Part shown: positions 6,513 through 18,942 of the stretch, piece by piece | Layout of the letters: each line of letters opens with the position of its first letter | Position numbering within the stretch: the first letter of the stretch is position 1 | Assembly: GCA_043800255.1 (NCBI GenBank) | Contig: JAZDNF010000003.1 | Location: 1-64,000, forward strand | Direction of reading: 5' to 3' | Source: Candidatus Altiarchaeota archaeon | Lineage (GTDB): Archaea; Altiarchaeota; Altiarchaeia; IMC4; SCGC-AAA252-I15 | Length of the DNA: 64,000 nucleotides | The notes under the pieces: generated by a model | The model's database searches: none | Seen by the model: the letters and a program-made list of their open reading frames with translations, nothing else | What the model was told of the DNA's origin: nothing | Made by a program: the position numbers and the translations under genes

Positions 6513-7693
6513 AAAAGCGATTCTGAAAGCAGGCTGAAATAGCCCCACGAAGCAAAGTTCAAACTCAATACGGTGAGCATCAGCGAGATGGTGGTTACCA
6601 GCAATAGGAGGTATCTTCTGCTTTTTAGTGAGTCGTCAAAAACCATCGAAAACGGCAGCGAGAGGAGCGGAATCAACGGATAGTGATATCTAGGCGACCA
6701 AGAGACAGTCCCGAAGGGGTTATGCCAGAAACTGTAGAATAGAACAAGAAGTAAGGATATCCAGGATATCATAATAATCTCCAAGGCGTTTCGGTTCTTC
6801 AATAGACCATAAAACGAAAACAAGATAACCGGTTGAGTCACTATCAAGGCCACTAGGATAAGGGCAACATGCCTAACGAAGCTGACATCAAAAGAGAACA
6901 GGGCTCTCGTATCCTGCGGCCCTTGCAGTCCGCTCTCAGAGTCAAACATAACGCTGGAATAGCCGGTCTGCAGCGGGCTTCCGAAGAGGAGGGCATCATA
7001 TGAAAAGAGGATGGCTAAGAATACTGAGGCTCCAACAGCGAAGTATGACAAATTTTTTGCGCTGGACCTCAGTCCTAAGAGGTAGATAACGGCCAGAACG
7101 GAGAGAGAGATTTTTGTGAACACAAGAAAGCCGAAAAAATAGCCGGACAACACCATAGACTCTGTCCGACCCGCTTTCCTGAAGTCAGCCATATAGTAGA
7201 CGGACGCTATCAATAGCAGACCTAGAAGCGATTCGGAGAGCGATACCTGAGAGTATGTGTATATGGACGTGCAGAATGCGAAAACCAGTGACGTGATTAG
7301 TGCTGTCTTCTCGTCAACGAAAAGACGGCAGAGGAGGAAGAGGTAAAGAACCGTTAAAGTCGAGAATAGAACACTAGCCAAGGGAATCCCCCGCAGCCCT
7401 GAGAGTACATAGAAGGGCGCCATAGCATAAGAAAAACCAGGGGAGAATCGACTATATGCATTGCCGTCTGAGCCCATGCTAAGGCAGCACCTCTGCCAGG
7501 AGCCAACAGGGTATGTGAGGTACTCGTTGAGGTTTAAATCGCCGGTATCGACAAGGCTCTGCGTTAACGCGAAATAGTTGTCTCCGAAGGTTATGTACGG
7601 ATATTCCATCCGATCAAAACCCATATATTGGAAAAAAAGAGAGACAAAATAGACGGAGAACACCACAATAAATAGAATAATCGTCTTATTCAT
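6509..7693 (-). CDS. GT-C fold membrane glycosyltransferase (PMT/ArnT-like)
   Basis: Polytopic membrane protein with N-terminal loop, SES motif, SPLQTGY and PRYHYP. Confidence 0.7.
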   Translation of the reverse strand: MNKTIILFIVVFSVYFVSLFFQYMGFDRMEYPYITFGDNYFALTQSLVDTGDLNLNEYLTYPVGSWQRCCLSMGSDGNAYSRFSPGFSYAMAPFYVLSGLRGIPLASVLFSTLTVLYLFLLCRLFVDEKTALITSLVFAFCTSIYTYSQVSLSESLLGLLLIASVYYMADFRKAGRTESMVLSGYFFGFLVFTKISLSVLAVIYLLGLRSSAKNLSYFAVGASVFLAILFSYDALLFGSPLQTGYSSVMFDSESGLQGPQDTRALFSFDVSFVRHVALILVALIVTQPVILFSFYGLLKNRNALEIIMISWISLLLVLFYSFWHNPFGTVSWSPRYHYPLIPLLSLPFSMVFDDSLKSRRYLLLLVTTISLMLTVLSLNFASWGYFSLLSESLF

Positions 7694-7725
7694 CGTATGC
7701 TCAGTTAGCCCTGGGAAGATTGCGA

Positions 7726-7778
7726 AGAGCCTTTCTTTTTTCCCGAAAAGAAAAACCCTCGGGAAAAAGAGAGGGGAT
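7726..7778 (+). repeat. Copy of the tRNA-associated hairpin repeat
   Basis: GAGCCTTTCTTTTTTCCCGAAAAGAAAAACCCTCGGGAAAAAGAGAGG aligns by eye with the reverse complement of 18200-18254. Confidence 0.7.
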
Positions 7779-8172
7779 ATTGTTTTCTTTCTTTTTCTGG
7801 GGGGAAAAATTTAGCCCCGGGAGGATTAAACCCCAAAAAAGTCCGAATCCCTACTAGTTTATTCTATTAAAACTTAAAATACCCCACATGATGTGAACCA
7901 AAGCAGAAGTGTCTGAGAACTTGGGAGGAGGACTACCCCTAAAATTAACTCTAAACTCTTATCGGGGTAGAGCGCCGGGGTTGGAATGGGAACGAGAGTG
8001 CAGTATCCCCGGTCAATGCCGAATGCGGGATTTCCCCTTGGATAGGATGTCGCTTCGTTTCAGAAAAATTTTCAGAATAAGCATGCTTTAAGGTTATTCT
8101 CCAACTTATTAATCAGTGTTTGGGCAAGGGATGCTCTATTTCAATAGCGTTTGCTTATACTCTAGTTGAAAC

Positions 8173-8883
8173 ATGGTCGAAGGTAAGAATACAAGTACTG
8201 CGGTGCACAGAGTGCAAAAACTACTCTCTAACCTTGGTTATTGTTCTAGACGGCAGGCTGAGGAACTGATACGGGCTGGGTGGGTGAAGGTCAATGGAGA
8301 AACAGTAACTGTTGGAGGTAAAGCTTCGGAGACTGATGTCATAACTGTTGGTGGTAAAGTTGTTAAGGGAGAGGATAGGGTTTATTTGATGTTTCATAAG
8401 CCTACTGGTTGTGTTACAGCCGTGAGAGATCCTAGGTTCAAGACGGTAATGGACTATCTCAGGATAAAGGAGAGGGTTTTTCCCATAGGCAGACTTGACC
8501 GTGACACCTCGGGAATACTTCTTCTGACAAACGATGGCGATTTTGCAAATAGTGTCATGCACCCCAGATATGAAGTGAAAAAGAGGTATGTCGTAGTGCT
8601 TGATAAACCTGTGAAGCAGGATGTGAAAAGAAAAATTGAACGCGGCATTACACTTGAGGATGGAAAAACAGCACCTGCAAAATCAAACATCCTAGCGGAA
8701 AATACCCTGGACATCACAATACATGAAGGAAAAAACAGGATAATCCGGAGGATGATGAAGGCGTTAGGCTATAACGTAAAAACCCTAAAGAGGGTCTCAA
8801 TCGGAAACCTCAAACTTGGAACACTAAAACCGGGAGAATACAGGAATCTAACAAAAAACGAGATCACCCAGATATTCAAATAA
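8173..8883 (+). CDS. RsuA/RluB-family rRNA pseudouridine synthase with S4 domain
   Basis: S4 (RVQKLLSNLGYCSRRQAE), FHKPTG, catalytic GRLDRDTSGILLLTNDG, EGKNRIIRRM. Confidence 0.92.
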   Translation: MVEGKNTSTAVHRVQKLLSNLGYCSRRQAEELIRAGWVKVNGETVTVGGKASETDVITVGGKVVKGEDRVYLMFHKPTGCVTAVRDPRFKTVMDYLRIKERVFPIGRLDRDTSGILLLTNDGDFANSVMHPRYEVKKRYVVVLDKPVKQDVKRKIERGITLEDGKTAPAKSNILAENTLDITIHEGKNRIIRRMMKALGYNVKTLKRVSIGNLKLGTLKPGEYRNLTKNEITQIFK

Positions 8884-8918
8884 TCAAACCCTCAGGATTC
8901 TATACCAAAGATGTGAAG

Positions 8919-9061
8919 AACCACCGGTCAGAGACCGATGGCATCTTATGAGATGAACCGGTGGTTCGTACACGCCTATGTGGCCGACCATCGGTCGGAC
9001 ACACACCCGAGCTGAACTCGACTGTGTTCCACCGGCCAAACCACCGGTCCGAGACCGGTGG
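8919..9061. repeat. Cluster of palindromes bounded by a 23-bp hairpin direct repeat
   Basis: AACCACCGGTCAGAGACCGATGG (8919) and AACCACCGGTCCGAGACCGGTGG (9039), with several short hairpins between. Confidence 0.65.
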
Positions 9062-9145
9062 AATAGAGCGTTTTAAAAATTGAAAAAAAGAGATAAAACT
9101 AAAAAGATCACTAAACCCCACTCAAACTCCAAAAAAAGAAAACCT

Positions 9146-9192
9146 TGCCGAAGGCGGGACTCGAATTACAGGTTCGAATCCCTGACGCGCCG
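9146..9192. other. Two back-to-back tRNA 3'-end fragments
   Basis: Minus strand TTCGAGT-CCCGC-CTTCGGC-A (9165-9146); plus strand GGTTCGAAT-CCCTG-ACGCGCC-G (about 9171-9192). Confidence 0.5.
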
Positions 9193-9241
9193 GATTATTT
9201 TCTGAAAAAAACGTTAGACTGCCAACTGAAAAAATAATTTT

Positions 9242-9427
9242 TAGCCCCGGGAGGATTCGAACCTCCGTCGCCCGGTTTCTTCATCAGAGCCTAACGGTTC
9301 TGATACCCCCTCGAATTTTCGCCTTTGGCGAAAATTCGTTTTTCTTTGGGGGTGAAGCACCTTTCTTTTTAAAAAAGAAAGGGGCTCCGCCAAAGCCGGG
9401 CAGGATTGGCCACTACCCTACGGGGCT
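9242..9427 (-). tRNA. tRNA-Gln(UUG) with 113-nt canonical 37/38 intron (9277-9389)
   Basis: AGCCCCG/CGGGGCT acceptor (A1-U72), CCCGG/CCGGG anticodon stem, T arm GGAGG-TTCGAAT-CCTCC; BHB central helix CTTT/GAAG. Confidence 0.92.
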
Positions 9428-9455
9428 GTCTATGTTTTTTTTCTTTTTGGACAAC

Positions 9456-9516
9456 TACGCGTTTTCTTTCTTTTCCGTAAACGCTTTTCTTTCTTTTTTG
9501 AAGAAAGAAAAGGGTT
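9456..9516 (-). repeat. Hairpin repeat copy starting immediately after the tRNA-Gly discriminator
   Basis: AACCCTTTTCTTTCTTCAAAAAAGAAAGAAAAGCGTTTACGGAAAAGAAAG; near copy of the tRNA-Gly intron content. Confidence 0.75.
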
Positions 9517-9666
9517 TGCGCCCGCCGGGATTCGAACCCGGGTCATCAGCTAACTTCAGAACCTGTTCACGTTTTTGTTCTTTCTTTTCGTGAACGTTTT
9601 CTTTCTTCTTAAGAAAGAAAAGGTTCCGTGGAAGGCTGAGGTCCTACCAGACTAGACTACAGACGC
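9517..9666 (-). tRNA. tRNA-Gly(UCC) with 77-nt canonical intron (9552-9628)
   Basis: GCGTCTG/CGGGCGC acceptor, TCAGC/GCTGA anticodon stem, perfect BHB helix CTTC/GAAG flanked by GGAACC/GGTTCT. Confidence 0.92.
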
Positions 9667-9824
9667 TTAGTGTTTGGATTCTTTCTTTTGGAGATGAAAC
9701 ACTTTTTGCTGCGAACCTTTGGTTCGCGGCAATCGGAAACCTTTGGTTTCCGCTTTCTTTTTTATGGATGAAAAGGGTTCTTTTTAGTGGGGGTAGGATA
9801 TATATAAAGCGGGGGGTTTTAAAA

Positions 9825-10745
9825 ATGTTTGTTTTTCCCGGGCAGGAGGTTTTCAACGTTGGGGGTTTGAGGTTTGGGGGTCAGATGGTTAATCCCTGTA
9901 AGATGGTTGCTACCGTCTTTTACAGGCGTGAGGGGGTTTTCTTGGATGGTGGTTTTTCCAGGTTTGACAGGCGGCTTGCTGGCTTGTTGATTGAGGATTT
10001 TGAGGCGGTTGGTTTGGAGTATGGTATTGAGTCTATGTTGGATGTTTTCGCTGAGAGCGGGGATGATATGGTGGAGAGGATTGATTTCGTCTGCTCTAGG
10101 ACTGATATGCCTTTTATGGTGGATTCCACTGATGCTGAGGTCAGGATGAGGGGTGTTGAGTTCGCTGAGGAGGTTGGGGTTGTTGACAGGGTGGTCTATA
10201 ATTCGATTAATGCCGGTATTAAGGAGCCTGAGATCGAGTTTCTAAGCGCGTCGAAGTTGAATGCCGCGGTTGTTTTGGCTTTCAACCCGGTTGACAGGTC
10301 CTTGAAGGGCAAGGTCGATATTCTTGAGAATGGTTCCAAGCTTCTTGATTCAGGTCTTCTGGACATTGCGAGGAGGTCGGGCGTGAGGAAGGTTCTTATT
10401 GACACCGGCGTTACCCCTTTGGGGGATGGTGCTGGCGTCTCATGTCATGCTATAACAGTTTTGAAGTCGAGGTTCGGGCTGCCGACTGGGAATGGAGTGC
10501 ATAATGTCGTCTCAGGTTTGAAGGGCAGATTGATAGGCAAGGATGGGGGATGTTTGGACGCCTCTTTGCATGCTGTTTCCAGGGTCTTGGGCGCTGATTT
10601 TCTGATGTTCGGGCCGATAGAGAACGCTAAAAAAATTTACCCTGTTATGGCCTTGACGGAGGCTGTGGTGGGCGAGTCTCTGATGGGCAGGGGTTTCTGC
10701 CTTGACGGGGGGCATCCTCTTTCGAAGTTGATGTCTGGTGTATGA
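9825..10745 (+). CDS. mtrH: Tetrahydromethanopterin S-methyltransferase subunit H-like pterin methyltransferase
   Basis: MFVF...Q.VFNVGGLRFGGQ start, PFMVDST, VYNSIN, LIDTGVTPLG, GLPTGNGVHN, GADFLMFGPIENA; start placed at MFVF. Confidence 0.85.
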   Translation: MFVFPGQEVFNVGGLRFGGQMVNPCKMVATVFYRREGVFLDGGFSRFDRRLAGLLIEDFEAVGLEYGIESMLDVFAESGDDMVERIDFVCSRTDMPFMVDSTDAEVRMRGVEFAEEVGVVDRVVYNSINAGIKEPEIEFLSASKLNAAVVLAFNPVDRSLKGKVDILENGSKLLDSGLLDIARRSGVRKVLIDTGVTPLGDGAGVSCHAITVLKSRFGLPTGNGVHNVVSGLKGRLIGKDGGCLDASLHAVSRVLGADFLMFGPIENAKKIYPVMALTEAVVGESLMGRGFCLDGGHPLSKLMSGV

Positions 10746-11053
10746 TGGAATCTGAGAAAGTGGATGGGGGGGAGTTTGATAGGCGTGCTGGCTTGGATGG
10801 CAGCGGGTTTTTCGTCATACACGTTGACCATGAAAGAGGTAGGCTGGTTGTTGAATTCTACTCTTACGATCGAAAGCTGAGGGACAAGATTGTGGGGGAC
10901 AATGCCATGAGAATCTGTGAGAGGGTTGTGGAGAAGGGGCTTATATCTGACTTGGGCCATGGCATGTACCTTGGGAGGGAGCTGGCGAAGGCGGAGATCG
11001 CGTTGAGGGGTGGCTTCAGGTACAAGCAGGATACTCCGCTGTCCTTATCCTAG
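10742..11053 (+). CDS. DUF4346-like protein
   Basis: LDGSGFFVI...LISDLGHGMYLGRELAKAEIAL...YKQD motif. Confidence 0.8.
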   Translation: MMESEKVDGGEFDRRAGLDGSGFFVIHVDHERGRLVVEFYSYDRKLRDKIVGDNAMRICERVVEKGLISDLGHGMYLGRELAKAEIALRGGFRYKQDTPLSLS

Positions 11054-12091
11054 GGGCCTCTCACTCCGGTAGTTTCTCACAATCTGGCCTAAGGATACTC
11101 TCTTCTGCCTCTCAGATGCATGGAGTTCGTTCAGATTGACGTAGTAGCAGTTTTGGAACTCCTTTAGTATTGAGGGCGGGAGTGTGGCGACGCCCTTAGG
11201 GTTGAGCTTCTTCGCCAGGTTTATGTTGTCAGTGAAGACTAGGGTTATGCCTTCCGGCAGTGTGTCATCAAGCTTTGCCATGCCTTTAGCATAGGTCATG
11301 CCCTCGAAGTGTGCTGGGTAGAGTCCGACCGGCTTTATTTTTTTCCCTGTCAGATCGTGCCATATGCTTCTGAATTGCTGCATCAGCCGCAGATCAGCTT
11401 CCCTCTCCCTGAGTTTCATCCTCAGAGTCGATGCAATATCGTTCAATCTGCCTATCTCGCTCTCCTTCAGCATCTCCCTGCGGTATTTCGAGCGCTCCAG
11501 TTTCAGGCTTTCAGACAGTTTTTCTATCCTCTTATCCTTTTCTCTGGCTTCATTCTGAAGCTCTTCCAGTTGGGATTTCAGCCGCAATATGCCGTCAACG
11601 CTGACGTGCGCAGAGTGGTTTCTCTTCTTTTTAGGCTTGCTGTTTTTTTCTGGCTGGCCGCTTTTATACTTGATGGCGAGGCCTGCAATCACGTTATGTT
11701 TGACGTCCTGGCCTAGGTCAAGCGACTCTATCTTCTGAAATTTGTTCTTGTAGTTGTTGTATGCGCTTATGGAGGCTGCGAGAGCGTCGCGTTGGTGTGA
11801 GTTTTCTACCTGATACGCTCTAGTGAGCTCTAGCTTCTCTGAGACTGTCAGAGGATGCTCAGGACGGTAGACCTGGCAGCCGAGCTTTGATGAGATTTTT
11901 TCGACGAAATGCGGGAGAGGGTTGACGTCAGACGCTATGAGAGACGCGCGCCCGAATTGTATGATGTAATCTATGGTCTCGCTGACTCCCATGTCTTTTG
12001 AACTGTGGAGTCTGATCAGTCTTCCGTTCAAATCCAGTATCGCGATCCCCGTGGTCGTCCCAGGGTCTACTCCCACGATAATGTATTCCAT
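11045..12091 (-). CDS. DUF460-family protein (RNase H-like fold plus coiled coil)
   Basis: IIVGVDPGTTTGIAILDL and NSHQRDALAA; start at MEYII overlaps the purF stop. Confidence 0.8.
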   Translation of the reverse strand: MEYIIVGVDPGTTTGIAILDLNGRLIRLHSSKDMGVSETIDYIIQFGRASLIASDVNPLPHFVEKISSKLGCQVYRPEHPLTVSEKLELTRAYQVENSHQRDALAASISAYNNYKNKFQKIESLDLGQDVKHNVIAGLAIKYKSGQPEKNSKPKKKRNHSAHVSVDGILRLKSQLEELQNEAREKDKRIEKLSESLKLERSKYRREMLKESEIGRLNDIASTLRMKLREREADLRLMQQFRSIWHDLTGKKIKPVGLYPAHFEGMTYAKGMAKLDDTLPEGITLVFTDNINLAKKLNPKGVATLPPSILKEFQNCYYVNLNELHASERQKRVSLGQIVRNYRSERPLG

Positions 12092-13446
12092 CACCCAACG
12101 AGTTTCGTCTGTTTTTCCTTTACAGGATAGTTGCCTGTGAGACATGCGAGGCAGAGCTTATCAGCCGGTAGGCCGATGGACGTTACAAGCCCGTGGAGGC
12201 TTATGTACGAGAGCGAGTCCGCACCTATCTCCTTGCTAATCTGCTCTACCGTCTTCTTGGAGGCTATGAACTCCTCTGATGTTTGCATGTCAATCCCGTA
12301 GGGGCATGTGTGCTTTACCGGCGGGCAGGATATCCTGACATGAACCTCCTTCGCCCCTGTGCTTTTTAAAAGCCGTATGAGTCTCTTCTGTGTGGTGCCT
12401 CTTACGATGGAGTCGTCTACGAGAACCAGTTTTTTCCCGTTGATTTCGCTAGCGATCGGGTTAAGTTTGACCTTCACGCTGACGTCCCTCTGGTTCTGCT
12501 CAGGCAGTATGAACGTCCTCCCAATGTACCTGTTCTTTATGAGAGCCTCGGAGTAGCTTATCCCTGACGCTTCAGAGTACCCTATGGCCGCGGTTATGCC
12601 TGAGTCTGGGACGGGGGTGACTATGTCAGCCTTCACGCTGCTCTCTTTTGCCAGCGTCTTGCCGAGATTCTTCCTAACGTTATAGACTGAGACGTCATTG
12701 ATTATGGAATCCGGCCTTGAGAAGTATACGTATTCGAACATGCAGTGGGAGGTGTTCTCTCTGTTTCCGTGATACGATTTCACGGTGTCATCGACCACGA
12801 TTATTTCAGCAGGCTTGACGTCCCTCTCGAGTTTGGCGCCTACGACGTCCAACGCGCAGCTTTCAGACGCGAATACATGGCCTTCTCCAAGCCGTCCGTA
12901 CACGAGGGGGCGGATTCCGTGCGGGTCCCTTACAGCTATCAGCTTTCCATCGTAGAGGATGACAAGAGAGTAGGAGCCTATGAGCTCCTTCATGGCCATC
13001 TTGATGCCCTCAACGAAGTCGCCTGTATTGAGATGCTCCTGGACTATAATCTGGGCTATGACCTCAGTATCGGAAGACGTTGTGAATATGTTGCCCTTGT
13101 CTTCAAGTTTTTTTTTAAGCTCGGCGTGGTTGAGAATCTGGCCGTTGTGAGCTAACGCGAAAGAGCCCCCAGAGTAGCTTATGTACAGGGGTTGGGCGTT
13201 CTCTATCTTAGAGCCGCCCTCTGTGGAGTATCTGACGTGGCCTATCCCTACGTTCCCCTCCAGGAGGATGTTCCTGAAGACCTCTGAAACGAGCCCCATG
13301 CCTTTATGGACCCGTATGCCATCGTTATCAACTGCGATGCCGGCCGACTCCTGGCCCCGATGTTGCATCGAGTACAGCCCATAGTAGACATGGTTGAATA
13401 CGCTGGTGTCTGACTTTATGCCAAAAACGGCACACTTGTCCTGCAT
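12091..13446 (-). CDS. purF: Amidophosphoribosyltransferase
   Basis: N-terminal Cys, QHRGQESAG, GHVRYST, PRPP motif VLVDDSIVRGTT, CLACLTG. Confidence 0.97.
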   Translation of the reverse strand: MQDKCAVFGIKSDTSVFNHVYYGLYSMQHRGQESAGIAVDNDGIRVHKGMGLVSEVFRNILLEGNVGIGHVRYSTEGGSKIENAQPLYISYSGGSFALAHNGQILNHAELKKKLEDKGNIFTTSSDTEVIAQIIVQEHLNTGDFVEGIKMAMKELIGSYSLVILYDGKLIAVRDPHGIRPLVYGRLGEGHVFASESCALDVVGAKLERDVKPAEIIVVDDTVKSYHGNRENTSHCMFEYVYFSRPDSIINDVSVYNVRKNLGKTLAKESSVKADIVTPVPDSGITAAIGYSEASGISYSEALIKNRYIGRTFILPEQNQRDVSVKVKLNPIASEINGKKLVLVDDSIVRGTTQKRLIRLLKSTGAKEVHVRISCPPVKHTCPYGIDMQTSEEFIASKKTVEQISKEIGADSLSYISLHGLVTSIGLPADKLCLACLTGNYPVKEKQTKLVG

Positions 13447-13496
13447 TTTCGGGGGAAGTAATACTTTTCTTCTTACATGCTTAAATAAGTTAAACC

Positions 13497-14648
13497 ATGG
13501 AATTCAAGGCTCTTAGAACTGGCATATGCTTCAACGGCTTCAAGGCCTCTGGAGTGAGGTCTGGGAAGCAGGGTGTAGCCCTGATTACTGCCGGAAAAGC
13601 CTGCAATGCTGTCGGCGTCTTCACGAGGAATAGGATAAAATCAGGTTCTGTGGTCTACACTCGGAGGAAGCTTAGGAACGGCATAATGGCGGTCGTCGTG
13701 AACTCCGGTAATGCGAACTGCTGCACTTCCACGGACGTAAAAGATGCCGACACGCTGGCATCATATGCTTCAAAGTACCTTGTAGTGGGAAAGGAGAACG
13801 TCGCAGTCTCCTCGACAGGCATCATCGGCAGGAGATTGAACACGAAAGGCCTCAGGCCGCTGATAGAGAAGGCTTCGGAGGGCTTAGGATGTTCCGGGAA
13901 AAAATCGCTTGAAGCTGCGAAGGCCATAATGACAACCGACACGAAGCCTAAAGTCTTCGCATACTCGCATAAGGGCATTATCATAGGAGGCATATGCAAG
14001 GGCTCTGGGATGATAGCGCCTAACATGGGGACGATGCTGTGCTTTCTCACCTCAAACGCCGACCTCCCCAGGGGATATCTGAAGAAGGCCCTTTCTGAGG
14101 CTGTTGACTCAACATTCAACATGATCGTGCTGGACGATATGAGCACGAACGATTCTGTCATGCTGCTGACAGATTCTTCTAAGAAATGCTCTCCCAAAGA
14201 CTTTAAGCTTCTCCTGACTCATGTTCTCAGGCAGTTCGTCAAGCTGATGCTCGAAGACGCGGAGGGCGCCTCAAAGGTCTTGGAAGTCACAATCAGGGGA
14301 GCTAAGGATGTTAAAACGGCCGGAAAGGCTGCAAAGGCTGTCGTCTCATCAAACCTCGTTAAGACCGCATTCTACGGTGAGAATCCGAACTGGGGGAGGA
14401 TAGCAAACAAGCTCGGCGGCACCATAGAGGTGGACTTCAGGAAGCTTGACATTGTTTTCGCGTCTGACAGGGGCAGAGCCTACGCCGTAAAATCCGGAAG
14501 ACCGCAGGATATAAGAAGATTGGCCAGAATCCTTAAGTCGAAGAAGATTCACGTCATCGCAGACCTGAAATCCGGTAGATCTGAGGCTACCGCATGGGGC
14601 TGCGATCTAACGCCAGGCTACGTTAAGATAAACGCCGAATACAATTAG
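13497..14648 (+). CDS. argJ: Ornithine acetyltransferase ArgJ
   Basis: VNSGNANC, STGIIG, IMTTDT, KGSGMIAPNMGTML, STND, PNWGRI, YVKINAEY. Confidence 0.95.
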   Translation: MEFKALRTGICFNGFKASGVRSGKQGVALITAGKACNAVGVFTRNRIKSGSVVYTRRKLRNGIMAVVVNSGNANCCTSTDVKDADTLASYASKYLVVGKENVAVSSTGIIGRRLNTKGLRPLIEKASEGLGCSGKKSLEAAKAIMTTDTKPKVFAYSHKGIIIGGICKGSGMIAPNMGTMLCFLTSNADLPRGYLKKALSEAVDSTFNMIVLDDMSTNDSVMLLTDSSKKCSPKDFKLLLTHVLRQFVKLMLEDAEGASKVLEVTIRGAKDVKTAGKAAKAVVSSNLVKTAFYGENPNWGRIANKLGGTIEVDFRKLDIVFASDRGRAYAVKSGRPQDIRRLARILKSKKIHVIADLKSGRSEATAWGCDLTPGYVKINAEYN

Positions 14649-14649
14649 G

Positions 14650-15270
14650 ATGAGGATACTGGGTTCTAACAAGGGCGCTATTGAGGTTTTGATACTAGCT
14701 AACGCCCTCGCGTTCATAATCACGCTTATAAACCAGAAATGGGTTTTCATGAACTTCGCACTCCAGCCTGCCACGGTGTTCGTCAAACCTTGGACGATAG
14801 TGACCAACATGTTCTTGCACGCCGGCCTGGGGCATATCGCATTCAACATGATAGCATTGTTCTTCTTTGGGATATATCTGGAACAGCTTGTCGGAGAGGA
14901 ACGGTTCCTGAAGATCTACTTATGGGGCGGGGTCTTCGCGAGCATAGCTTACGTGTTCACCTCGATCTTTTTCGGGCTTCCGAGTCCGACGGTTTTCGCT
15001 GTCGGCGCATCGGGAGCGGTCTTCGCGATTATGGGGGCCCTCGTAGTATTAAGGCCTAATATGACGATACTCTACAACTTTTTCATACCGATGCCGCTCT
15101 GGGTTTGGGCCATAATCTACACCATAATAGCAGTGCCCGAGATGCTCTACCCTGTCGGTTCCATAGCGCACAACGCGCACCTCGGCGGGATGCTCGCAGG
15201 TTACTATTTCGGGAAGAGGATACAGGCAGAGGGTACGGGAGGGGGAGGATACGGGTACAGATTTTACTGA
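14650..15270 (+). CDS. Rhomboid intramembrane serine protease
   Basis: PW.....FLH...HI.FNM, VGASGA and AHLGG motifs. Confidence 0.93.
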   Translation: MRILGSNKGAIEVLILANALAFIITLINQKWVFMNFALQPATVFVKPWTIVTNMFLHAGLGHIAFNMIALFFFGIYLEQLVGEERFLKIYLWGGVFASIAYVFTSIFFGLPSPTVFAVGASGAVFAIMGALVVLRPNMTILYNFFIPMPLWVWAIIYTIIAVPEMLYPVGSIAHNAHLGGMLAGYYFGKRIQAEGTGGGGYGYRFY

Positions 15271-15272
15271 AT

Positions 15273-16163
15273 ATGAAAGAGACAGGCAAAGCTAGGCTGA
15301 TTAGGAGCGTTCGCGTGCTGGCCAGGATAATCAGGCTCAGGAACGCGCTCATAACATTCTTCGGCGTGCTGGTCGGAGCCACGCTAGTCGACACTGTTGA
15401 AGTAATCCCCATGAATTCTGACGTCATGATGGCAGGTCTGGCCGCCTTCCTCATAGTCGGTGGGGGAAACACCCTAAATGACTTCTTCGACTATGAGATT
15501 GATAAAACGAACCGGCCTGACAGGCCCATCCCATCGGGCATGATATCAAGAAGCGACTCTCTCATGCTTTCAGCCACGCTGTTTCTTGTGGGATTGGGTC
15601 TTGCGAAGTCGATAAACAGATACGCTTTGATCATAGCCATAACTAACACTCTGATTCTGATATTGTACGCCAAATTCTCGAAAAGGCTGCTGCTCATCTC
15701 AAACCTGAGCATAAGCTATCTTGTTGCGTCCATATTCCTCTTCGGCGCTGTTTCAGTATCATCAGACATCAATGGGAATACCGGCAGCATCCACCTTGCG
15801 ACTGTACTGTTCGCCTGCGCCTTTCTGATGACCTTCGCAAGGGAGATAGTAAAAGACATAGAGGATTTCGAGGGGGACAGGCGAGCTTACTCCAGAACAT
15901 TGCCTATTGTATTAGGCATATCGAATGCGAAGCGCATAACCATCATCTTCGGGCTGACTGCCGTCGTATTGAGCCTCGTGCCGCTTGTGCACTCGTATCA
16001 GACAATAAACGAGAGCATATATGGCATAATAATCGGCCTTGCTGATGTCATATTCGTCGCCGCCCTCACAATGTACGCACCATTAAGCCAGAAGGTCATG
16101 GTCCTCGGCATGCTATTAAGCCTATTCGGGTTCTTCTTCGGCAACATCGCAACAAAGATATAA
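15273..16163 (+). CDS. UbiA-family prenyltransferase, likely digeranylgeranylglyceryl phosphate synthase
   Basis: NDFFDYEIDKTNRPDRPIPSG and REIVKDIEDFEGD; start placed at MKETG after the rhomboid stop. Confidence 0.88.
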   Translation: MKETGKARLIRSVRVLARIIRLRNALITFFGVLVGATLVDTVEVIPMNSDVMMAGLAAFLIVGGGNTLNDFFDYEIDKTNRPDRPIPSGMISRSDSLMLSATLFLVGLGLAKSINRYALIIAITNTLILILYAKFSKRLLLISNLSISYLVASIFLFGAVSVSSDINGNTGSIHLATVLFACAFLMTFAREIVKDIEDFEGDRRAYSRTLPIVLGISNAKRITIIFGLTAVVLSLVPLVHSYQTINESIYGIIIGLADVIFVAALTMYAPLSQKVMVLGMLLSLFGFFFGNIATKI

Positions 16164-16194
16164 AACATCCCTCCCTAGTATTTAAAATCAATAA

Positions 16195-16379
16195 GCCTCA
16201 GTAGCTCAGTCGGCAGAGCGTTGCCTTGGTACAGCCCTTTCTTTTCCCGAAAAGAAAGCGCGGCGAAGACTTAAGTGTCTTCGTGCGCAACGAGACAAAA
16301 GTCTCGTTTGCGCTGGCGGAAAGAAAAGCCATTGGTTCCAAAAAGGCAAAGGTCGCGAGTTCAATTCTCGCCTGGGGCT
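16195..16379 (+). tRNA. tRNA-Thr(GGU) with 112-nt canonical intron (16232-16343)
   Basis: GCCTCAG/CTGGGGC acceptor, U73, TTGCC/GGCAA anticodon stem, BHB helix TTGG/CCAA. Confidence 0.92.
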
Positions 16380-16482
16380 AAGGTAGACTCAGGGTTCTGA
16401 CGAGTTCATTATAATATCATATGTTATCATATGACAGTGTATTTATGCCTCTTTTTTTACTAGGGACTGTAGATACTATATT

Positions 16483-17076
16483 ATGCCGGTCAAGACGGCG
16501 ATGCTCAAAATCGCGGAACACATAAACGACGCCGTGAAGGAGATAGACGACGGAGAAGTCGACCTCATGGTGGAGGAGATACAGAAGGCCAAGAAGATAT
16601 TCTTAGTAGGCGCTGGCAGGTCAGGGCTTGTTGCGAAAGCCTTCGCAATGAGGCTGGTCCAGCTCGGGCTCACAGCATACGTTGTCGGTGAGACAACATC
16701 GCCGGCAATAACAAAAAAAGACCTTCTCATCGCAGTCTCAGGCTCGGGTAAGACCACCAACGTCGTCAACGTCACGAAAATCGCGAAGGACATCGGCGCC
16801 AAGGCGCTTACAATAACATCATATCCTAATGCAGACTTAGGGCAGCTGTCAGACCATGTTGTTAAGATAAAGGGCAGGACGAAGATAGACATAGAGAAAG
16901 ACTACACTGAAAGCCAGCTCAAAGGTCATTTCTCCTCTCTAACTCCCCTGGGAACGCTCTTCGAGGACACTGTCATGATATTCTTCGACGGAGTTATCGC
17001 AAGGCTGATGAGCGAGCTTGGCAAGGGTGAGAGTTACATGAAAAAGCGCCACGCCACGCTTGAATGGTTCTACTGA
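16483..17076 (+). CDS. hxlB: 6-phospho-3-hexuloisomerase (SIS domain)
   Basis: GAGRSGLVAKAFAMRL, VVGETT, SGSGKT, PLGTLFE, terminal RHATLE. Confidence 0.93.
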   Translation: MPVKTAMLKIAEHINDAVKEIDDGEVDLMVEEIQKAKKIFLVGAGRSGLVAKAFAMRLVQLGLTAYVVGETTSPAITKKDLLIAVSGSGKTTNVVNVTKIAKDIGAKALTITSYPNADLGQLSDHVVKIKGRTKIDIEKDYTESQLKGHFSSLTPLGTLFEDTVMIFFDGVIARLMSELGKGESYMKKRHATLEWFY

Positions 17077-18137
17077 ACCCTGAACCTCAAGATTGCGCCA
17101 ACCCCGCCCAGAGAATTCAGCTGCCTGCCAGCCTCGGATTCGCTGTTTACAATATGGACCAGCCCCCTAGATGCTTTCACATTCTGCATGTTAGCATCAA
17201 GGCGCTCCCTGTCCCTGACAAATTCGTTATCGGTTACCAGCAGCGCCTCCACAGCCCCCAGATTTATCGCAGACTCGACATCGCCGAGGCCGTATGCGCC
17301 CAAACCGGAATCTTTGCCTATGTTTTCCAGAAGCTTTTCAACCAGCTGTATGTCCTTCACAGATGCTGACTCTTCGATAACTTTTCGGGTTTCATCCCTC
17401 TTCAAGACCTCGATTACGCCGTTCCTCCCTGATGAACCGGTGTGCTCTAGGATGCAGTTGCCGCTGATTGCCGGGGAGTGTTCCCGCAGATAGTTGAGAA
17501 AATTCTCCTTCTCGAAGCCTGGGCCGGCGACTATGGTCTTGGCTATCGAATCCGACTGTATGAGCTGTTCCAGCAGACCGCCCACTTCGCTGTAGAATTC
17601 ATCCTTCCGGGATTTCCTCTGCGCGGTGTCGTATTTGCCCCCTATGGTCTTCGTTATCTCATAGTATTTGATCTGTGATTCCCTCACCAGCCCGATGCTG
17701 GCCTCACCCTCGTCTATCACAGCAACCAGGAGCTTAGGCCGGAAGGTCGACCGCTCAGCCTCTTTCAGGCGGCTGAAGTCGACCTCAGACCACCTCTCTT
17801 TTACAATATCAAGGACGGTCCCGTGCTCGACCGTGAACGTGTGATGGGATCCTACCGAGACCAAATCCTCAGGGCCTTCGGTTATTATCCCAGAAATCCT
17901 GAAACTGCCAGTCTCAGACTTGAACTCCGTCTTCTCGACTCGGATCTTCAGCCTGACGGGCCTGCGCTCCCCCCCGCTGCTCCTCCCGATATCCTCCTTG
18001 TCCTTTATCCTCCTGTAGGATACCGACGTCACAAGGTCGCCTGGCATGATAACATGGCTCAGATACCACAAATCGTCCAAATTCTCAGACCTCGCTTTCA
18101 CAAAACCGTGCCTGAGATCGGACTTCAGGATTTTCAT
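17070..18137 (-). CDS. pelA: Pelota (aDom34) ribosome rescue factor
   Basis: ENLDDLWYL, GSHHT, AGPGFEK, LGGVGAILRF; true start MKILK (the longer ORF overlaps tRNA-Glu). Confidence 0.95.
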   Translation of the reverse strand: MKILKSDLRHGFVKARSENLDDLWYLSHVIMPGDLVTSVSYRRIKDKEDIGRSSGGERRPVRLKIRVEKTEFKSETGSFRISGIITEGPEDLVSVGSHHTFTVEHGTVLDIVKERWSEVDFSRLKEAERSTFRPKLLVAVIDEGEASIGLVRESQIKYYEITKTIGGKYDTAQRKSRKDEFYSEVGGLLEQLIQSDSIAKTIVAGPGFEKENFLNYLREHSPAISGNCILEHTGSSGRNGVIEVLKRDETRKVIEESASVKDIQLVEKLLENIGKDSGLGAYGLGDVESAINLGAVEALLVTDNEFVRDRERLDANMQNVKASRGLVHIVNSESEAGRQLNSLGGVGAILRFRVQ

Positions 18138-18199
18138 ACAACAGTATATTGAGAACACAAAAAGAAAACAGGATAGTATCACTTGAGGAGCAGCCGCAT

Positions 18200-18254
18200 C
18201 CCTTCTTTCTTTTTCCCAAAGGTTTTTCTTTCTTCGGGAAGAAAGAAAAAGGCT
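18200..18254 (-). repeat. Hairpin repeat copy starting immediately after the tRNA-Glu discriminator
   Basis: AGCCTTTTTCTTTCTTCCCGAAGAAAGAAAAACCTTTGGGAAAAAGAAAGAAGG. Confidence 0.75.
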
Positions 18255-18417
18255 TGCTCCCGCCGGGATTCGAACCCGGGTCACCAGCTAACTTCATCGG
18301 AATCTAACGGACTCCAACACCTCCAAATTTTCTTTGGGGGTGAAGCACCTTTCTTTTTCTAAAAGAAAGGGGCTCCTCGAAAGGCTGGAATGATTGACCG
18401 GACTACACTACGGGAGC
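18255..18417 (-). tRNA. tRNA-Glu(UUC) with 88-nt canonical intron (18290-18377)
   Basis: GCTCCCG/CGGGAGC acceptor, CCAGC/GCTGG anticodon stem, BHB helix CTTT/GAAG. Confidence 0.92.
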
Positions 18418-18454
18418 GTGTGATTTGGTTTATAGTTATATTAATTGGGGGAGT

Positions 18455-18528
18455 ATGTGTTTTTCTTTTCCGTCAACGCTTTGCTGCCGAAGGCAGTAAA
18501 GGGTTGGATTGGACTACACTACGGGAGC
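18455..18528 (-). repeat. 18-nt duplicate of the tRNA-Glu 5' end followed by a variant hairpin repeat copy
   Basis: 18511-18528 is identical to 18400-18417; then AACCCTTTACTGCCTTCGGCAGCAAAGCGTTGACGGAAAAGAAA. Confidence 0.7.
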
Positions 18529-18633
18529 TAGTAATCAATCGGTTTTATAGATATGGAGGTCTCTGAATATAAGTCTTATCGTGCTCTTGGTCTGGAGAAA
18601 TGGCGGGTTATACAAAGAATGTTTTGGAGGGGG

Positions 18634-18942
18634 TTATTTGGTCAGCTCTATTTCGATGTGGACGCCGTCTGGGACTTGGATGCGCATTATCTGTCCGAGG
18701 GAGCGCTCGTCCGCGTCAAGGTCTATTATCCTCTTGTGAACGCGCATCTCCCAGCGCTCCCATGTGGCGGTTCCCTCGCCAGATGGCCCTTTCCGGGTGG
18801 TTATCTTCATCCTCCTTGTTGGGAGGGGAACCGGCCCGGAAAAGTTGACGCCGGTCTTCTTTGTGACCGTTACTATCTGGTCGCAGACGTCTTCAATCTG
18901 CCCCACATCTTTGCCTATTAGTATAATCCTCGCCTTTTCCAT
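18634..18942 (-). CDS. rps10: 30S ribosomal protein S10 (uS10)
   Basis: GPVPLPT, RKGPSGEGTATWERWEMRVHKR. Confidence 0.97.
   Translation of the reverse strand: MEKARIILIGKDVGQIEDVCDQIVTVTKKTGVNFSGPVPLPTRRMKITTRKGPSGEGTATWERWEMRVHKRIIDLDADERSLGQIMRIQVPDGVHIEIELTK

Follow-up and report, generated by a model that had tools for sequence, protein, structure and literature searches.

How do introns arrive in archaeal tRNA genes, and how do they move between them? The question is open (the accessible part of a 2026 preprint on Asgard tRNA introns puts it as 'how they arrive remains open'), and it is raised by a stretch of 64,000 nucleotides from a groundwater-dwelling Candidatus Altiarchaeota archaeon (assembly GCA_043800255.1, contig JAZDNF010000003.1, positions 1 to 64,000 of the forward strand), referred to below as the window. 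Four tRNA genes in it are each interrupted by an intron that opens with a copy of one small repeat, which we call the module. Most tRNA introns of this genome open with the same definable repeat, which also sits at gene ends, leaves duplications and varies between strains, and which may help to explain how such introns arrive and move. We regard it, on the whole, as probably a recombination-prone DNA repeat of the class II intrastrand triplex type, independent of a transposase and tolerated where RNA processing removes its copies.

Default tRNA finders overlook these genes, a point of practical weight. ARAGORN at default settings recovered none of the four, and in an Rfam search at gathering score tRNA-Gly was the sole match in the window; relaxing the search to E values up to 1 over positions 7600-18650 added a chance-level, mascRNA-like match to the tRNA-Glu 3' exon (E 0.98). 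Rerun with introns of up to 300 nt permitted, ARAGORN called four genes, for Gln, Gly, Thr and Glu, on the 112-kb contig of the window, every one with an intron after position 37 (Table 1), which bears out the preliminary description of 77-113-nt introns at position 37/38. The program's label for tRNA-Gln ('Stop tta') is wrong, the anticodon loop reading CU-UUG-G by hand. In the whole genome (G000 below, 93% complete; other G numbers denote genomes of relatives, L numbers loci and C numbers contigs) 32 calls were kept, two implausible ones (C11:47317-47570 and C14:174239-174544) having been dropped, and 26 of the 32 carry an intron. Each of the four genes in the window is the only one for its anticodon among these calls. 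Several anticodons lack a called gene, and some tRNAs of G000 may be interrupted in ways that ARAGORN cannot see.

Alignment and parsing of the module copies gave a common design of 45-60 nt, longer where inserts are present. It begins with a 4-nt foot followed by a C, a pyrimidine arm of 7-16 nt, a loop of 3-5 nt, the complementary purine arm and a second C; then come four nucleotides that pair with the foot, with a C.C mismatch above it, a 3-nt turn (mostly ACG) and a purine tail. What had been described as an 'A(A/G)CC' start is in fact the foot plus its C, and the foot covaries with the four nucleotides behind the purine arm in at least ten pair types, including GAAC/GTTC, CAAC/GTTG, GCAC/GTGC, CAGC/GCTG, ACAC/GTGT and GGAC/GTCC. 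Nor is the tail plainly 'purine-rich': it is the purine arm read backwards, that is, a mirror, and neither a loose purine run nor a direct repeat. Parsing of 63 model matches left 57 distinct copies from G000 and its relatives, in which tail and purine arm mirror each other at 594 of 601 positions, perfectly so in 50 copies, while 1000 shuffles of the tails gave a mean of 518.5 and a maximum of 536. The G positions are mirrored in 110 of 115 cases, against 85.7±2.9 in shuffles, and each of the 26 distinct arm patterns, 7-16 nt long, comes with its own mirrored tail. This three-way covariation is clearer than what sequence conservation alone offers. An exact search for class II sites with 8-nt arms found 23 in G000 and none in any of five shuffled genomes. 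A looser scan (one mismatch, loops up to 80-100 nt) returned 101 clusters, mostly noise, and was used only for spotting long forms; a control for a 'direct-repeat design' (12 sites) was discarded as unclean because periodic arms share 8-mers. We also considered the tail as an alternative Watson-Crick partner in an RNA switch and rejected it, the direct reading matching at 518 of 601 positions, which is shuffle level, and only the two C-type copies of the window folding in this manner.

Three subtypes can be told apart: A has the ACG turn, B a longer, C-rich turn, and C a GGG turn together with two C.C mismatches. Long forms also occur, in which a structured insert lies in the loop or separates the purine arm from the foot; the module of the tRNA-Thr intron has an insert of the latter kind, which is 52 nt long, consists of two hairpins (16258-16309) and varies between strains. 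In many copies a further covarying hairpin follows the tail (GGAATTT, a TTCG-like loop, AAATTC, then AAC; L038, L041, L042, L044, L052 and G000 C8:133038-133062), and may be an optional 3' extension of the module.

The order of the arms, and the occurrence of stems of at least 8 nt above the frequency in scrambled genomes, place the module within the definition of a class II intrastrand triplex: a pyrimidine domain at the 5' side, a purine domain, and a reverse-Hoogsteen mirror domain at the 3' side (Holder et al. 2015, PMC4666352; cited here and below from the accessible part of its text). Because no templated copying yields a mirror repeat, selection on a fold must be what holds the three arms together, and since purine-motif triplexes are stated not to form in RNA (PMC4666352), we assign the fold to single-stranded DNA of the sense strand. 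In it the tail would lie antiparallel on the purine arm, giving G.G-C and A.A-T triads. The complementary strand has the pyrimidine-motif design, and in principle an antisense RNA could adopt that fold. The hairpin noted in the preliminary description is present, and the mirror tail points beyond it to a three-stranded DNA fold. Folding programs, which model the hairpin and not the third strand, gave z scores of -1.2 to -3.7 for the hairpin as DNA. When folded as single-stranded DNA, four of six window copies pair foot and arms into the hairpin and leave the tail unpaired (z -3.1 to -3.7), and both C-type copies of the window prefer to pair the pyrimidine arm with the tail. In arms parsed by Watson-Crick pairing only, from the 3-5-nt loops down to the C.C mismatch, there was no G.T among 601 arm pairs.

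Eight copies lie between 7.7 and 18.5 kb of the window, none of them within a long open reading frame (ORF), as had been described, and neither the covariance model nor nhmmer found a ninth on the 112-kb contig. All four introns hold one; two more stand directly at the 3' ends of tRNA-Gly and tRNA-Glu, starting at the discriminator base, and another follows a 5' fragment of tRNA-Glu (Table 1). The last, earlier placed at 7726-7778, is present one nucleotide to the left; it is antisense to a nearby tRNA-Gln 3'-end fragment and flanked by one diverged and one exact piece of the tRNA-Gln 3' end. The covariance model was built from five short non-intron copies of the same length, as MAFFT misplaced the 5' arms when all 26 copies were aligned; B, C and long forms are undercounted per genome, and the large runs used strict filters, so that the counts per genome given below are low estimates.

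In G000 as a whole we curated about 41 copies, concentrated at small-RNA genes and not evenly spread over intergenic DNA. The module opens 18 of the 26 tRNA introns, always in the sense of the tRNA and always at position 37/38 among the ARAGORN-called tRNAs, where missed genes could hide exceptions. Its foot begins 0 nt (nine introns), 1 nt (five), 2 nt (three) or 3 nt (one) past the 5' splice site, so that it can serve as the helix beside the 5' bulge. A near-identical B type is found in the introns of Gln, Glu, Val, Ile and Met. Seven copies start at, or a few nucleotides from, the 3' end of a tRNA or C/D-box small RNA (sRNA), and in the end-adjacent copies the 5' half of the foot takes in the tRNA's own C72 and/or A73. 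The remaining copies lie upstream of RNA genes, behind gene fragments and, in a few cases, elsewhere; three (C8:117720, C13:42593 and 7725 of the window) are antisense to the nearest tRNA or tRNA fragment. The tie to small-RNA genes is strong; copies with duplicated targets occur at the starts of protein genes as well. The model had matches in 45 of the 49 genomes from the order and in 56 of the 61 from the phylum, with 0-57 per genome.

The bulge-helix-bulge (BHB) motifs predicted to frame the introns were read by hand from the sequence and then compared with RNA folds. Two of the four valid BHBs described earlier are strict: that of tRNA-Gly (central helix CUUC/GAAG, bulges CA|C and UU|A, outer helix GGAACC/GGUUCU) and that of tRNA-Thr (central helix UUGG/CCAA, outer helix of 4 bp). 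For tRNA-Gln and tRNA-Glu a canonical 4-bp central helix and a canonical 3' bulge can be drawn, and the 5' splice site is relaxed: it lies opposite a conserved 3-nt 'GAU', or in a junction that the module hairpin makes with a 3' hairpin. Each BHB has a 3' half peculiar to its tRNA, the 3' end of the intron being fitted to its own anticodon loop, and in A-type introns an additional distal complement of the foot completes the outer BHB helix. G000 has one gene for the splicing endonuclease EndA, a protein of 170 aa whose single N-terminal and single catalytic domain (PF02778 and PF01974) give it the one-unit build seen in homotetrameric enzymes. Such enzymes are tied, in the accessible text of PMC4090602, to strict BHB motifs and to introns in fewer than 10% of tRNA genes; despite its sole EndA being of this build, G000 has introns in most of its tRNA calls.

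Many copies are accompanied by a duplication of the sequence in which they sit. When the 45 nt preceding each module were searched for exact repeats within 400 nt behind it, a flanking duplication of 12-47 nt was found in 26 of 79 copies (8 of 38 in G000 and 18 of 41 at loci of relatives), against 37 of 1560 shuffled pairs. The layout is constant: a piece X, the module, a short spacer, then X again with the remainder of the gene. X may be the opening 14-31 nt of a tRNA gene (tRNA-Glu in the window, tRNA-Phe and tRNA-Arg at other places, and Arg, Phe, Val, Lys and others in relatives), the final 12-47 nt of one, the start of a C/D-box sRNA, or the start of one of three protein genes. One of these, an S-adenosylhomocysteine-hydrolase-like gene (C16:37827), has a diverged 69-nt copy of its 5' end with a longest exact run of 19 nt; the other two, a DapF-like gene and one more, have their starts duplicated in relatives. 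An array in G019 (L058, G019:C185, 1440-2350) consists of six tandem units of about 132 nt upstream of an intact, intronless tRNA-Lys(UUU) gene, each made up of an AT-rich spacer, a 30-nt 5' fragment of tRNA-Lys and a module. The spacers alternate between two variants, suggesting amplification in blocks of two units.

The locus of tRNA-Glu, which lies in synteny behind rps10 in five genomes, allows the duplicated state to be compared with others. G000 has the tRNA fragment and a triplex module, G012 and G016 have fragments and other, GC-rich modules, G021 has C-type modules behind rps10 and behind tRNA-Glu, and G025 has no module. Part of the G000 spacer corresponds to native upstream DNA of G025, so that 'upstream + X' seems to have been duplicated in tandem, the module marking the new joint, and judged by these sequences the event does not look like the work of a transposon with target-site duplication. 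Elsewhere in G000 (C13:11520-11870, L034) both ends of a C/D-box sRNA gene are duplicated, the 5' end over 28 nt and the 3' end over 14 nt; a module follows each duplicate, and three modules are spaced about 130 nt apart.

The introns are neither identical among relatives nor simply inherited vertically. Among 16 genomes examined, tRNA-Glu has an intron at 37/38 in eight and none in the other eight, and the eight introns open with the triplex module (five), a GC-capped variant (one) or another hairpin module (two). The introns of tRNA-Gly(UCC) and tRNA-Gln(UUG) hold different module subtypes in G000, G017 and G006, the Gln intron of G017 being similar to the Gly intron of G000. Trailer copies, too, are missing in G025, G012 and G015. 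Behind tRNA-Leu, four genomes share the foot of the module, and three of these share its arms as well. Near-identical strains, compared on DNA contigs from four groundwater metagenome runs of one study, differ in the module of the tRNA-Thr intron. On a 6.7-kb contig about 97% identical to the window, 38 nt of the GC-capped variant replace the 90 nt at 16241-16330, and behind the old foot CAGC there now stands a new partner, GTTC, that does not match it, which places the crossover inside the module. On a 2-kb contig (about 98% identical) the insert at 16258-16309 is missing, with a 4-nt ambiguity at the joint. Short-sided joints over the Glu and Gly introns (sides below 40 nt, likeness 85) were set aside as tRNA genes of other organisms and not strain variants.

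It had been proposed that the repeat is REP- or MITE-like (MITE, miniature inverted-repeat transposable element) or spreads through RNA, and none of these found support. Conservation of the module runs from foot to tail, its ends are not mutual inverted repeats, and no target duplication of fixed length is seen. We therefore rejected a MITE, given the lack of terminal inverted repeats and duplications of 12-47 nt in only 26 of 79 copies. Searches of G000 gave no match to the Y1 transposase (PF01797) and no reverse transcriptase; the latter result leaves the RNA-mediated route without support. Y1 genes, which 17 of the 49 genomes from the order possess, do not follow the module counts (Spearman rho 0.035), and nine of the 16 genomes with at least ten modules are without them; the REP/REPIN-RAYT and IS200/IS605-derived classes, and with them a HUH/RAYT-like transposase, for which a search had been suggested, were rejected on these grounds.

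What, then, is the module? The reading that we hold to be probable, if not secure, treats it as DNA of a selfish or semi-selfish kind, whose spread and reshuffling need no dedicated transposase. Likely routes would be recombination between copies, and template switching where replication stalls at the fold. New copies would survive at the start of BHB introns, where EndA excises them, directly behind the 3' ends of tRNAs and sRNAs, where trimming removes them, and at gene starts if the same event also duplicates the beginning of the gene, giving the order of fragment, module and intact gene. The outcome would be a rapid turnover of intron content. A structure-forming repeat of this kind explains the mirrored arms, the absence of an enzyme, the layouts of the junctions, the arrays and the differences between strains, and it fits the link between such motifs and instability seen in bacteria (Holder et al. 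2015, PMC4666352).

Several points weigh against this reading. The B-type sequence, as found in the Glu intron, is 91-100% identical in other families of the order, and in some cases different families have an end-adjacent copy at the same tRNA. The 18 intron copies are all in sense and none begins more than 3 nt from the splice site, a closer constraint than tolerance alone predicts, and selfish DNA accounts poorly for the conserved C.C mismatch and ACG turn. The A.A-T triads are the weak ones of the purine motif. Template switching is read from layout alone and no donor-recipient pair was traced, and some spacers hold letters that belong neither to the module nor to the duplicate. The sample of relatives is biased, the model having been built from five non-intron copies and mostly the best match of each genome having been inspected. 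Moreover, A/T-rich motifs are mostly equalled by scrambled genomes in the survey of Holder et al. (PMC4666352). The identity of the B type across families, the sense-only hugging of splice sites and the conserved C.C and ACG keep a host function or a binding protein in play. A conserved role in the host, or a conserved protein that binds the module, explains the first of these points and the end copies at the same tRNAs no worse than selfish DNA does.

A host-function element would be a signal that the cell retains immediately behind exon ends. Its site of action might be RNA, where it could form a rigid helix presenting the 5' splice site, serve a processing or decay factor as a point of attachment, or persist after excision as a stable RNA, perhaps a circular one. 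It might equally be DNA, namely the non-template strand of small-RNA genes under heavy transcription. Besides the points just named, such a role would suit the presence of the module in most of the phylum, the same module type behind tRNA-Glu in two families, the shared foot and arms behind tRNA-Leu, and the UUCG-like loops, an RNA hallmark, of several accessory hairpins. A hairpin directly behind the discriminator should, however, hinder 3' trimming, given the preferences of tRNase Z; the parsed arms hold no G.T pair, whereas RNA-selected stems usually show some; half of the tRNA-Glu genes compared do without the intron and three genomes without the trailer copies; and copies also occur antisense to tRNAs and at protein-gene starts. 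An RNA hairpin, furthermore, needs no mirror tail, and purine-motif triplexes reportedly do not form in RNA (PMC4666352). We consider this explanation unlikely, if well worth keeping in mind. A similarly low likelihood attaches, in our view, to a bolder proposal, namely that the gain and exchange of tRNA introns in Altiarchaeota, and probably also in further small archaea, are brought about by the module itself, as a mobile element that has no enzyme of its own. Its three-stranded fold would stall replication, and the template switches so provoked would paste the module. The pasted module would bring a ready-made 5' splice-site helix into or beside small-RNA genes. The data give no demonstration that the module generates new tRNA introns, the 3' halves of the BHBs being tRNA-specific and intron gain not being distinguishable from loss. 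If true, the proposal would explain at the DNA level how archaeal 'intron transposition' works, a mechanism long sought, and would add a new, structure-driven class of mobile DNA, and a sequence of 50 nt offers testable material for folding, mutation and population tracking.

Three other explanations have less to commend them. The module could be a non-autonomous single-strand DNA transposon, similar to IS200/IS605-derived palindromic elements or REP/RAYT, whose foot guides it to a 4-nt target and which an unrecognised nuclease mobilises in trans. Its foot pairing recalls IS608, which recognises its target by DNA pairing: the 5' half of the foot often consists of the target's own bases (C72, A73) and always pairs with the 3' half, and a fold of one strand, conserved as an element across the phylum, would be expected of it. 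We think such a transposon quite improbable, since G000 has no Y1_Tnp and the order shows no correlation with it, since terminal inverted repeats are absent, and since at least ten foot variants would imply at least ten targets. IS200/IS605 elements are not known to make a target duplication, whereas duplications of 12-47 nt are seen at a third of the copies. That Candidatus Altiarchaeum hamiconexum is given as the archaeon of highest MITE density, in the accessible part of PMC11602168, may be counted in its favour. About as improbable is a promoter/terminator cassette or insulator, in which the T-rich arm terminates the gene in front and the purine tail is the transcription factor B recognition element (BRE) of the gene behind. 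Copies do stand at the 3' ends of tRNAs, an sRNA and rps10 (G021), many precede a same-strand tRNA by 25-70 nt, and TTATAA-like words occur within a few nucleotides of several tails. Runs of T4-T6 are also present, however, inside the 18 introns that require read-through; the distance from tail to gene varies from 0 to 170 nt, the best TATA candidate of tRNA-Glu lying 15 nt past the tail; and neither the mirror tail nor the covarying foot is needed for such a cassette. Bacterial PIT elements have shown no promoter or terminator activity (Hoyne and Maher, via Holder et al. 2015, PMC4666352). Least credible of all, and to our mind very improbable, is that the order of tRNA fragment, module and intact tRNA is a scar left by mostly deleted plasmids or viruses, with the module as the end beside the attachment site. 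A tRNA-Thr fragment of Caldiarchaeum (Sugahara et al. 2012, PMC3293823, accessible part) offers a parallel to which the layout here is alike in miniature, but the gap between fragment and gene is only 16-170 nt and has no adjoining integrase gene, fragments end at arbitrary positions, also within protein genes, and the six tandem units of G019 would require six integrations and six deletions. The intron copies and the mirror design would be left unexplained.

Table 1. Features of the window discussed in the text.
Feature	Position	Strand	Description and evidence
C-type module, intergenic	7725..7777	+	weak covariance-model match (E 0.52); BLAST match to the tRNA-Glu trailer copy
Exact 18-nt copy of tRNA-Gln 3' end with flank	7810..7827		letters identical to 9240-9257
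tRNA-Gln(UUG)	9242..9427	-	exons 9427-9390 and 9276-9242; intron 9389-9277, 113 nt, at 37/38; ARAGORN, RNA fold
B-type module, Gln intron	9339..9387	-	foot from intron nt 3; nhmmer, partial covariance-model match, DNA fold z -3.18
A-type module at tRNA-Gly discriminator	9462..9517	-	foot AAAC/GTTT, 12-nt arms, mirror tail; covariance model 55.6 bits; DNA fold z -3.09
tRNA-Gly(UCC)	9517..9666	-	intron 9628-9552, 77 nt; Rfam tRNA 50.3 bits; ARAGORN
A-type module, Gly intron	9579..9626	-	foot GAAC/GTTC, 11-nt arms, mirror tail; covariance model 46.6 bits; DNA fold z -3.19
tRNA-Thr(GGU)	16194..16380	+	intron 16232-16343, 112 nt; ARAGORN, RNA fold
Long-form module, Thr intron	16232..16328	+	foot CAGC/GCTG, 9-nt arms, mirror tail
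C-type module, tRNA-Glu 3' end	18201..18256	-	foot takes in C72 and A73; 12-nt arms, mirror tail; DNA fold z -2.06; alternative DNA fold pairs pyrimidine arm with tail
tRNA-Glu(UUC)	18255..18417	-	intron 18377-18290, 88 nt; ARAGORN, RNA fold
B-type module, Glu intron	18328..18375	-	nhmmer, covariance model, DNA fold z -3.65
Module variant after Glu 5' fragment	18457..18506	-	GC-capped hairpin, foot CAAC/GTTG, purine tail; covariance model 41 bits
18-nt duplicate of tRNA-Glu 5' end	18511..18528	-	about 90 nt upstream of the intact gene; exact repeat, duplication scan

Beside tRNA-Gln, an 18-nt direct repeat (7810-7827 and 9240-9257, comprising the 3' end of the tRNA and 3 flanking nt) brackets a 1.4-kb segment that looks like a small insertion at the tRNA-Gln end and contains an ORF for an RsuA-like pseudouridine synthase (about 8175-8885) and a cluster of inverted repeats of the 'accaccggtc' type (8920-9060). 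An orphan tRNA-like 3' piece, with a T arm, the 3' strand of the acceptor and a small GC hairpin in front, lies at 9150-9195 on the plus strand; a split tRNA was rejected for it, no fitting 5' half being found anywhere in the assembly.

Other small structured sequences share the surroundings of tRNA genes in G000. A second family of intron modules, made up of two GC-rich hairpins (GCTCGCC..GGCTCGC, then TCTGYCC..GGRCAGCG; C8:129048-129175, C12:11512-11648 and C4:4471-4602), fills the introns of tRNAs mislabelled by ARAGORN, whose anticodon loops read Lys-UUU, Asn-GUU and CAU, and related GCGCTCGC words recur in tRNA trailers. A third is a plain hairpin, CAACCTTT..AAAGGTTG, often followed by ATCAAATGAGCCAC (C8:133205-133230, C13:11755-11785 and C7:156230-156260; L079, L081), which is found behind tRNA-Arg(GCG) and tRNA-Cys and opens the tRNA-Glu introns of G008 and G001. 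The 93-nt intron of tRNA-Trp (C8:117883-118049) has C/D-box-like words in place of the triplex module, as in other archaea, and the EndA gene is 1.5 kb from this tRNA. Finally, a conserved stretch of about 60 nt with two hairpins stands just upstream of tRNA-Met and again, in antisense, just downstream of tRNA-Arg(UCU) (C11:63445-63525 and C13:42535-42595).

In the literature we found no description of this family and no paper that joins triplex-type repeats to tRNA introns, supplements lying outside the search (the MITE tables of PMC11602168 may list Altiarchaeum repeats). Parallels to parts of the picture do exist. Like REP/BIME (REPIN)-RAYT and IS200/IS605-derived elements, the module is a small, structured, non-coding repeat that would act as a single-strand hairpin, and a possible guide-like pairing of the foot with flanking bases is a further likeness; it differs from these classes in the lack of a Y1/RAYT gene in G000 and of a link to Y1 across the order, in the mirror tail and in the long target duplications of variable length. 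In Caldiarchaeum subterraneum a tRNA-Thr 5' fragment lies 1.8 kb upstream of the intron-bearing tRNA-Thr gene with a recombinase-coding element between them (PMC3293823, accessible part). Common to both cases is a tRNA 5' fragment upstream of an intact, intron-bearing gene in an arrangement that varies in the natural population, but in place of a 1.8-kb recombinase element there is here a module of 45-100 nt and a short spacer.

Closer to the introns themselves are the 'transposed' introns of Thermoproteales, attributed to an unknown mechanism at the DNA level (Fujishima et al. 2010, via the accessible part of Yoshihisa 2014, PMC4090602). There, as here, closely similar intron sequence is found in tRNAs of differing identity, 18 introns sharing the module in G000. 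The Thermoproteales introns, however, also occupy non-canonical positions and go with a lenient alpha2-beta2 EndA, whereas those described here are at 37/38 and go with a one-unit EndA, and the shared part is here a defined repeat that is also found outside introns.

As to structure, the G-rich repeats of Methanomicrobiaceae are, like the module, archaeal, intergenic and dispersed, and for them a hairpin with an antiparallel purine third strand was shown in vitro with DNA oligonucleotides (PMC8044849); for the module the fold is a predicted one. Those repeats differ in being G/C-rich, in having the purine third strand first and in competing with a G-quadruplex, and PMC8044849 mentions neither tRNA nor introns. 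The nearest likeness is to the bacterial BoxC, PIT and TMECO elements, which have the same order on one strand (pyrimidine arm, loop, purine arm, turn, mirrored purine arm) and are likewise dispersed and non-coding, more frequent than in shuffled genomes, linked to local rearrangement and without a known enzyme. The module does not belong to the BoxC/TMECO sequence family, with its G/C-rich 9-nt stems (CCCTCNCCC / GGGNGAGGG) and second loop of 3 nt. Where TMECO has a fixed G/C-rich 9-nt motif, the arms of the module are T/C and A/G, 7-16 nt long and of GC content 0.26-0.44; the module adds a covarying 4-bp foot and the C.C mismatch, its second 'loop' is of 8 nt and not 3, and it carries optional structured inserts in loop and turn. 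Frequent long target duplications at the module are a further difference, and the bacterial elements are known from Proteobacteria and Cyanobacteria, whereas the module is spread through an archaeal phylum, where it is tied to, and oriented with, tRNA introns and the ends of RNA genes, tRNA being unmentioned in the accessible text of PMC4666352. The module thus extends intrastrand triplex repeats from the G/C-rich intergenic DNA of bacteria to A/T-rich elements that lie inside the genes of archaea.

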